From: an uncultured Verrucomicrobiae bacterium
Lineage (GTDB): Bacteria; Verrucomicrobiota; Verrucomicrobiia; Chthoniobacterales; JAFAMB01
Assembly (NCBI GenBank): GCA_963813025.1
Contig: CAWEXO010000013.1
Coordinates: 320,001 to 384,000 of the forward strand
Direction of reading: 5' to 3'
DNA length: 64,000 nt
The notes beneath the pieces were generated by a model. That model worked only from the letters and a program-made list of their open reading frames with translations. It was not told where the DNA came from and did no database searches. The translations under genes were made by a program, and so were the position numbers. Positions 23,107 through 23,230 of the stretch are shown in pieces; within the stretch, counting starts at the first letter, position 1; each line of letters begins with the position of its first letter.

Positions 23107-23230
23107 CTCCTAAGAAACTGGATAAGGCCGGTCTAATAAAGTTAGCTCTTCCTAAGAGCCAAACAGCCCCCAATCGAGAACTCGGATGGTTTCTTGCCGC
23201 AACAAGAACCCGCAGCGGTTCTGGGGAACT
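23107..23230. mobile_element. 124-bp non-autonomous IS110-derived mini-element (MITE-like)
   Basis: Left end CTCCTAAGAAACT and right end GTTTCTTGCCGCAA..GTTCTGGGGAACT match both ends of IS110 element 1; no ORF. Confidence 0.8.

Follow-up and report, generated by a model that had tools for sequence, protein, structure and literature searches.

IS110 elements of the window

The window analysed here is a 64,000-nt stretch of a contig from an uncultured Verrucomicrobiae bacterium. The IS110-related features of the window include: (i) element 1, an IS with a recombinase gene and a predicted bridge RNA, (ii) a 124-bp mini-element (mini) bounded by sequences homologous to the ends of element 1, and (iii) the remnant end of a different IS110 clade, which lies directly left of the mini, while an IS630-family element adjoins on the right (Table 1).

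Table 1. Features of the mini-element locus and of IS110 element 1 (window coordinates).
Feature	Position	Strand	Remarks
Remnant end of a different IS110 clade	23063..23106	+	~48% aa identity; left flank of the mini
IS110-derived mini-element	23107..23230	+	124 bp with the CT core at each end, 122 bp when circular; orientation as in element 1
IS end located at the transposase stop codon	23107..23119	+	13 bp identical; with CT core and CTCCTAA, the donor arm that the donor guide reads
Mini interior	23120..23188	+	69 bp; no significant match to resident IS110; common to the whole long-mini family
Interior pattern TNAG-N6-CTAA-N5-TNAG-N6-CTAA	23123..23155	+	nearly invariant
Homolog of the IS end that lies upstream of the bridge RNA	23189..23230	+	42 bp; inverted repeats and second CT core
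Target arm AGCTAG	23231..23236	+	right flank of the mini
IS630-family element bounded by CTAG	23233..24392 (ends approximate)	+	ORF 23422-24363; adjoins the mini on the right
IS110 element 1, likely helper type	4363..6056	-	1694 bp; 13 such left ends in the genome
IS110 recombinase	4366..5757	-	463 aa; PF01548, PF02371 and NF033542 above cut-off; DEDD and serine motifs
Predicted bridge RNA	5806..5960	-	10 of 31 consensus pairs with two-sided changes, 16 sequences
Target guide	5916..5923	-	plus-strand reading CTAGCTAT; matches CT-AGCTA
Donor guide	5833..5840	-	plus-strand reading CTCCTAAA; matches CT-CCTAA at the end of both IS and mini

The mini begins with CTCCTAAGAAACT, which is identical at 13 of 13 positions to element 1 at 4363, while the terminal 42 bp are ~90% identical to element 1 and 95% identical to a variant IS on contig C9 of the source genome. 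The initial annotation had described the mini by these two shared ends and had reconstructed the empty sites of mini and IS as aacG-CT-AGCTAG and ttgG-CT-AGTTAG, with CT at both ends; both descriptions are borne out. The 42-bp match has an E value of ~1e-10 within the genome, and CTAG[CT]TA[AG] occurs only 92 times on both strands of the 4.4 Mb genome; thus, the end match and the sites are not attributed to chance. A second, subterminal inverted repeat (AAGAAAC/GTTTCTT) is common to the two ends. The terminal hairpin was also said to be preserved, and here sequence and structure part ways: the arms AGAAC/GTTCT are invariant over 28 aligned mini copies, and none of the 17 predicted plus-strand pairs has two-sided changes, so the hairpin is considered conserved sequence and not demonstrated structure.

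As the initial annotation proposed, the mini encodes neither a transposase nor a guide RNA. No transposase match is detected at the locus, and the bridge-RNA model scores at most 4.8 bits on the mini with filters off, compared to 170 bits at window 5806-5960, where the IS type of element 1 was part of the model training set. The mini is likewise rejected as a shrunken bridge RNA at this score. The DEDD recombinase and bridge RNA in cis that define an autonomous IS110 are carried by element 1 and are absent from the mini. The mini is also distinct from a classical MITE, with terminal inverted repeats and a target-site duplication, as the two ends are unlike and only CT is repeated. The arrangement is instead MITEPpu9-like, in that both ends are homologous to the cognate IS110 and each includes the core dinucleotide.

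The left-flank IS110 end of the mini has a paralog on contig C13 near 653600, which stops at an unoccupied CG-CT-AGCTAA site. This paralogous repeat end is the only empty counterpart of the window copy found; contigs from four DNA runs include no joint across the copy and none that spans the stretch, so they yield no direct empty allele of the window site. The left flank matches the related genome G001 over its first ~320 bases only. Upstream of the mini, window 22490-23060 is a fragmented ABC-transporter-like sequence, relative to which other contigs carry 4-base and 1-base insertions.

Element 1 and the guides of four IS110 types

The recombinase of element 1 scores 247 bits against NF033542 (cut-off 140) and is encoded on the minus strand; thus, the core reads AG in the transposase orientation. 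Element 1 has the long non-coding end upstream of the transposase, and the (left) guides matching target and donor, that are typical of IS110-group elements. Consensus and model of the bridge RNA are built from an alignment of 16 IS leaders. Two variable 8-mers of the leader track the insertion sites and ends in four IS110 types, a correspondence that rests on the left guides, with the right guides not assignable consistently across the four types. In plus-strand spelling, type A, to which element 1 belongs, has the target guide CTAGCTA with sites AGCTAG or AGTTAG, and the donor guide CTCCTAA with the end CTCCTAAG; the type-A copy L110 has the target guide CTAGTTA and resides at AGTTAG. Type B (80% aa) has the target guide CTCCTAA and donor guide CTCTTAA, the end being CTCTTAAG in two of the three copies in which it is visible. 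Type C (46% aa) shares the target guide CTCCTAA but has the donor guide CTTCTGA, with the end CTTCTGAG in the one copy checked, while type D (48% aa) has the target guide CTAGCTA, the donor guide CTCTCCA and the end CTCTCCAG.

Other IS110-related sequences are noted. Window 32829-34181 (minus strand) is an ORF of 450 aa that includes a DEDD IS110 domain but has no Transposase_20 match, is below the NCBIfam cut-off and is unrelated to element 1 by BLAST. Two type-A copies of the source genome (C3:32094-37092 and C14:65237-68363) are interrupted by other insertions. A hairpin repeat ending in GAAGCCCTTGG recurs before insertion sites (window 4340-4362, L023, L105, L108 and L158) and may be a preferred host repeat.

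Copies and sites in the source genome

The source genome has 18 left ends of the element 1 type, which comprise 13 full-type IS and five minis. The minis are at three loci, with three copies 100% identical; the initial annotation had suggested a search for further copies at GCTAG sites, and four beyond the window copy are present. At C14:104508-104753, two minis form a perfect head-to-tail pair with one CT in common. At C14:36986-37222, a mini pair is followed directly by a full IS, and the copies have small deletions of the kind that long-read assemblies make. The tandem junctions have the sequence expected of a circle junction. Among the 15 loci occupied by an IS or mini, 13 have AGCTAG as the flank with at most one mismatch; both mini-only loci are among these and match the target guide of the IS. 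One of the remaining two fits after a one-base slip; the other, the mini-mini-IS train, ends at AAGCCT and fits no guide.

The C14:104508 pair splits a MobA-like gene (C14:104154-105030), the single such gene found. With the pair removed, an open frame runs through the site, with 132 codons before it and 93 after it. The search for empty alleles in relatives, also suggested by the initial annotation, is answered at this locus: the mobA ortholog of G001 is intact, and its two flanks are separated by just the two bases CT. Thus, minis are dispersed over three loci of the source genome, and one of these has a clean empty counterpart.

The mini family in relatives and metagenomes

Within the bacterial family, eight of 42 further genomes match the mini. 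In a sample of the phylum, one of 400 other genomes has a 28-base match, and the mini family is not found outside its bacterial family in the genomes searched. A pattern search with the 42-bp end alone finds at least 80 metagenome loci. The metagenome matches (at least 81) include at least 45 complete minis, at least 13 IS (one of them a mini to which an IS is joined) and at least 23 that are unclassified; 23 of the 81 listed were left in this last group, many of them truncated by contig ends. A pattern match in Martelella (L072) is inside a coding region, has no element ends and is treated as chance. Independent short-read soil contigs include 104 bases that match exactly and, in full length, a copy with nine differences; the flanks differ from those of the source genome.

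Genome and metagenome loci together provide at least 56 distinct copy-sites of minis that are 109-128 bp (long) or 59-61 bp (short), counts that are approximate and may under-count tandem pairs, as metagenome contigs swap flanks between identical minis (L092, L111 and L150) and short-read assembly may hide tandem pairs. Among the matches listed, the long minis are 65-91% identical to the window copy. The short minis keep only the two ends and occupy the same targets as the long forms. Outside the source genome and G035, 40 of the 43 sites among the matches listed have AGCTAG within one mismatch after CT, as spelled by the type-A target guide; three do not match the type-A target, and C(C/T)TAAG follows the mini at none. 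In L087 and L090, an IS and a mini are back to back in opposite orientations within the palindromic target CTAGCTAG. The mini family is very probably old and spread through one bacterial family, and not the product of a recent deletion in a resident IS.

IS110 lineages with guides to IS110 ends and a probable partner switch

The type-B and type-C guides spell a different target. Of the eight informative insertions of these types, seven have CCTAAG, CTTAAG or TCTAAG next, and six abut an end of the mini/IS family (four long minis, one short mini and one IS). The IS110 copies at the four long minis (L158:1831-3640, L154, L161 and L166 (G036)) have the target guide CTCCTAA and are inserted exactly at the left end of the mini, which in L158 is 91% identical to the window copy. 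The L173 insertion is at a plain CT-CCTAAG site, while the type-B copy L105 is a counter-example in which AACTAG follows, which is not the target of its guide. A type-C variant with the target guide CTTCTCT (L169 and L180 in G018; L167 in G063) is inserted where another IS110 gene, itself frameshifted, has its 3' end. The sequences argue strongly for the CT-CCTAAG end of the mini as a landing site for other IS110 lineages, the target guides of which spell that end. The mini pairs of the source genome are better explained by donor half-match events, as no type-B or type-C element is found there.

An exchange of partner is apparent in G035. This 72%-complete assembly has type-B IS110 and no detected type-A copy. 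All six of its long minis begin with CTCTTAAG, the type-B donor, and in each case the type-B target (CCTAAG or CTTAAG) comes next; two of the sites are ordinary sequence and not element ends. One of the two intact type-B copies has a type-A end, and a type-B copy that lost its end (L038) is excluded from the counts. The joint change of end and site is the pattern expected if the RNA of the helper reads both, and a single base change at the mini end very probably lets minis switch to an IS110 partner of another lineage. The switch is known from one genome and is probably one event. Other arrangements in G035 include a four-unit train (mini-IS-IS-short mini, L035, C42:57228-60797), in which each pair has one common CT and which ends at AGTTAG, and three worn short-mini ends (L064, L065 and L037) followed by GGCTAC within CTACTGG-type repeats, which match the target guide CTGGCTA of L095.

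Proposed mechanism and alternatives

As the initial annotation held, the mini is proposed to be non-autonomous; it would be an IS110 derivative that has retained the two donor arms around a CT core. It is multi-copy, shares the target of the IS110 and has neither transposase nor bridge RNA. The type-A recombinase and bridge RNA (donor guide CTCCTAA, target guide CTAGCTA) would act on the mini in trans. The two ends would be joined to form a 122-bp circle, and the circle would be inserted at CT-AGCTAG-like sites with only CT duplicated. This order of events is in all likelihood correct, and movement in trans is strongly implied by the common target and the G035 partner switch. Head-to-tail pairs would form through a donor half-match, either by insertion of a copy at an existing CT-CCTAAG end or by its duplication next to such an end.

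The interior may have a function of its own. After 27 of 39 aligned long minis were taken out as near-duplicates or gapped, 16 of 43 ungapped interior columns are invariant in the 12 diverged representatives, compared to 6.5 +/- 2.4 expected at uniform rates (reached in 1 of 5000 simulations), and the first 55 alignment columns have almost no indels. The invariant columns form the pattern TNAG-N6-CTAA-N5-TNAG-N6-CTAA, the role of which is unexplained. Such conservation would suit an interior that encodes a small RNA or protein-binding array with a role in regulating or recruiting the IS110 machinery, similar to the possible role of Ssr9 for ISPpu9. This role is somewhat unlikely in view of the absence of covariation-supported structure on either strand (none of 17 plus-strand pairs and one of 22 on the other), folding near background (z = -0.65 and -0.04), no match to the sigma-70 consensus promoter in the mini and a single, weak Rfam match (P24, 21 bits against a gathering score of 100). 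The short minis, moreover, lack the motif; thus, the motif is not needed to occupy type-A targets. An interior function is compatible with movement in trans and would add to it. Two further readings of the interior are rejected: helical (10.5-bp) A/T phasing for circle formation, as the best interior period is 9.25 and p < 0.05 in only one of 12 sequences, and protein coding, as in-frame stops are present in three of 12 representatives along with an invariant upstream stop.

The minus-strand translation of the interior resembles transposase C-termini over its first ~13 codons (LT.L...DLVS*) and may weakly suggest that the mini family descends from an old internal deletion. A parent transposase with a 3' end that explains the interior is not identified among 91 homologs, although the C-terminal length of a sister clade fits. 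The same resemblance, and the small deletions of the C14:36986 copies, would be consistent with a dead remnant formed by in situ deletion of a resident IS110, with the extra copies due to assembly error or gene conversion. As the origin of the window copy this is already refuted, and overall it is extremely improbable. The initial annotation had named a single copy aligning as such a deletion as grounds to abandon mobility; instead, there are five copies, and the interior aligns to the resident IS and to the IS leader no better than shuffles (p = 0.40 and 0.14). The three flanks are unrelated, the ortholog is cleanly empty, the independent short-read contigs place the 104-base match and the full copy between other flanks, and one mini pair in G035 consists of two diverged copies. 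A different enzyme, either the adjacent IS630 transposase or the IS110 clade with its end beside the mini, is also highly unlikely to have moved the mini. The mini does adjoin the IS630 element, with a type-D IS110 end on its other side, and the CTAGCTA target guide is common to type D; yet neither neighbor is at the other two mini loci, the mini end is not matched by the type-D donor guide (CTCTCCA) and the duplication is limited to CT. In addition, no type-B, C or D transposase is found in the 80%-complete assembly of the source genome.

Relation to known systems and significance

The closest precedent for the mini is MITEPpu9 (the A'-ssr9-B' module) of ISPpu9 from Pseudomonas putida KT2440, a published IS110-associated MITE (PMC12288879). 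As described there, MITEPpu9 is without transposase and bounded by copies of IS110 ends (a 43-bp box with an inverted repeat and a 16-bp box), similarly to the 42 and 13 bp of the mini, and both have an AG core in the transposase orientation (PMC12288879). MITEPpu9 is also found free, duplicated in tandem, or joined downstream of the transposase with one core in common (PMC12288879). By contrast, MITEPpu9 carries a small RNA complementary to an IS antisense RNA, is reported from three related strains and has detected circles (PMC12288879), whereas no conserved fold or promoter is found in the mini. The mini also differs from MITEPpu9 in that its interior is unlike the IS leader, its family is diverse (65-91% identity among the matches listed) with a 59-61-bp class, and one subfamily tracks the guides of a different partner.

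IS621 is similar to element 1 in the DEDD recombinase, the structured upstream RNA with target and donor guides and the two-base core (PMC11208160; PMC13626964; bioRxiv 10.64898/2026.08.31.748434), but is autonomous and only distantly similar to element 1 (E 4e-5). Donor half-match insertions are reported for IS621 (PMC11208160; PMC13626964; bioRxiv 10.64898/2026.08.31.748434), and engineered 22-bp donors were used to move DNA in trans with this system (PMC11208160). Since a 22-bp IS621 donor suffices (PMC11208160) and natural 59-61-bp forms keep only the two ends, the mini does not newly define the minimal cis requirements, as the initial annotation had expected. Head-to-tail non-coding units beside IS110 transposases (n = 468), with left-donor matches at the unit boundaries, resemble the mini pairs; however, the units are described as local expansion (bioRxiv 10.64898/2026.08.14.744561), while minis also stand alone at dispersed target sites. 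The main text of that report does not use the terms 'MITE', 'non-autonomous' or 'self-target' (bioRxiv 10.64898/2026.08.14.744561).

A literature search found no paper on IS110 target guides that spell IS110 donor ends or on minis that track the guides of a partner, although supplements may hold cases of either. The IS110-family elements IS4321/IS5075 are reported to target the repeats of Tn21, and IS1383 those of IS1384. Types B and C are similar in their guided insertion into the end of another element, but the donor end that they target belongs to their own family and its minis. IS110 lineages that target IS110 ends would provide a second route, besides half-match duplication, to the recently reported tandem IS110 trains.

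The mini is a real, repeated and gene-less passenger. Selfish DNA of this kind is known, and the enzyme and guide RNA that move the mini are most likely those of an IS110. The mini family offers natural sequence evidence that an IS110 recombinase and bridge RNA may move elements that carry neither, and the one-base change of the donor arm is consistent with the redirection of a passenger to the targets of another guide. The family also gives ready substrates (122 and ~58 bp) with which to address the shortest circle recombined by a bridge RNA and the subterminal bases beyond the guide-paired arms. A tiered, RNA-guided community is a more tentative proposal, somewhat short of an even chance, in which old minis under selection for the interior motif seed CT-CCTAAG pads in soil Verrucomicrobia, at least two IS110 lineages with rewritten target guides colonise these pads and single end bases change the helper. 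If so, guide-directed movement in trans would have natural reporters in the minis, which would also be active partners of the second-tier elements. Mini copies also have effects on the host, as one pair splits mobA and may affect the molybdenum cofactor enzymes.
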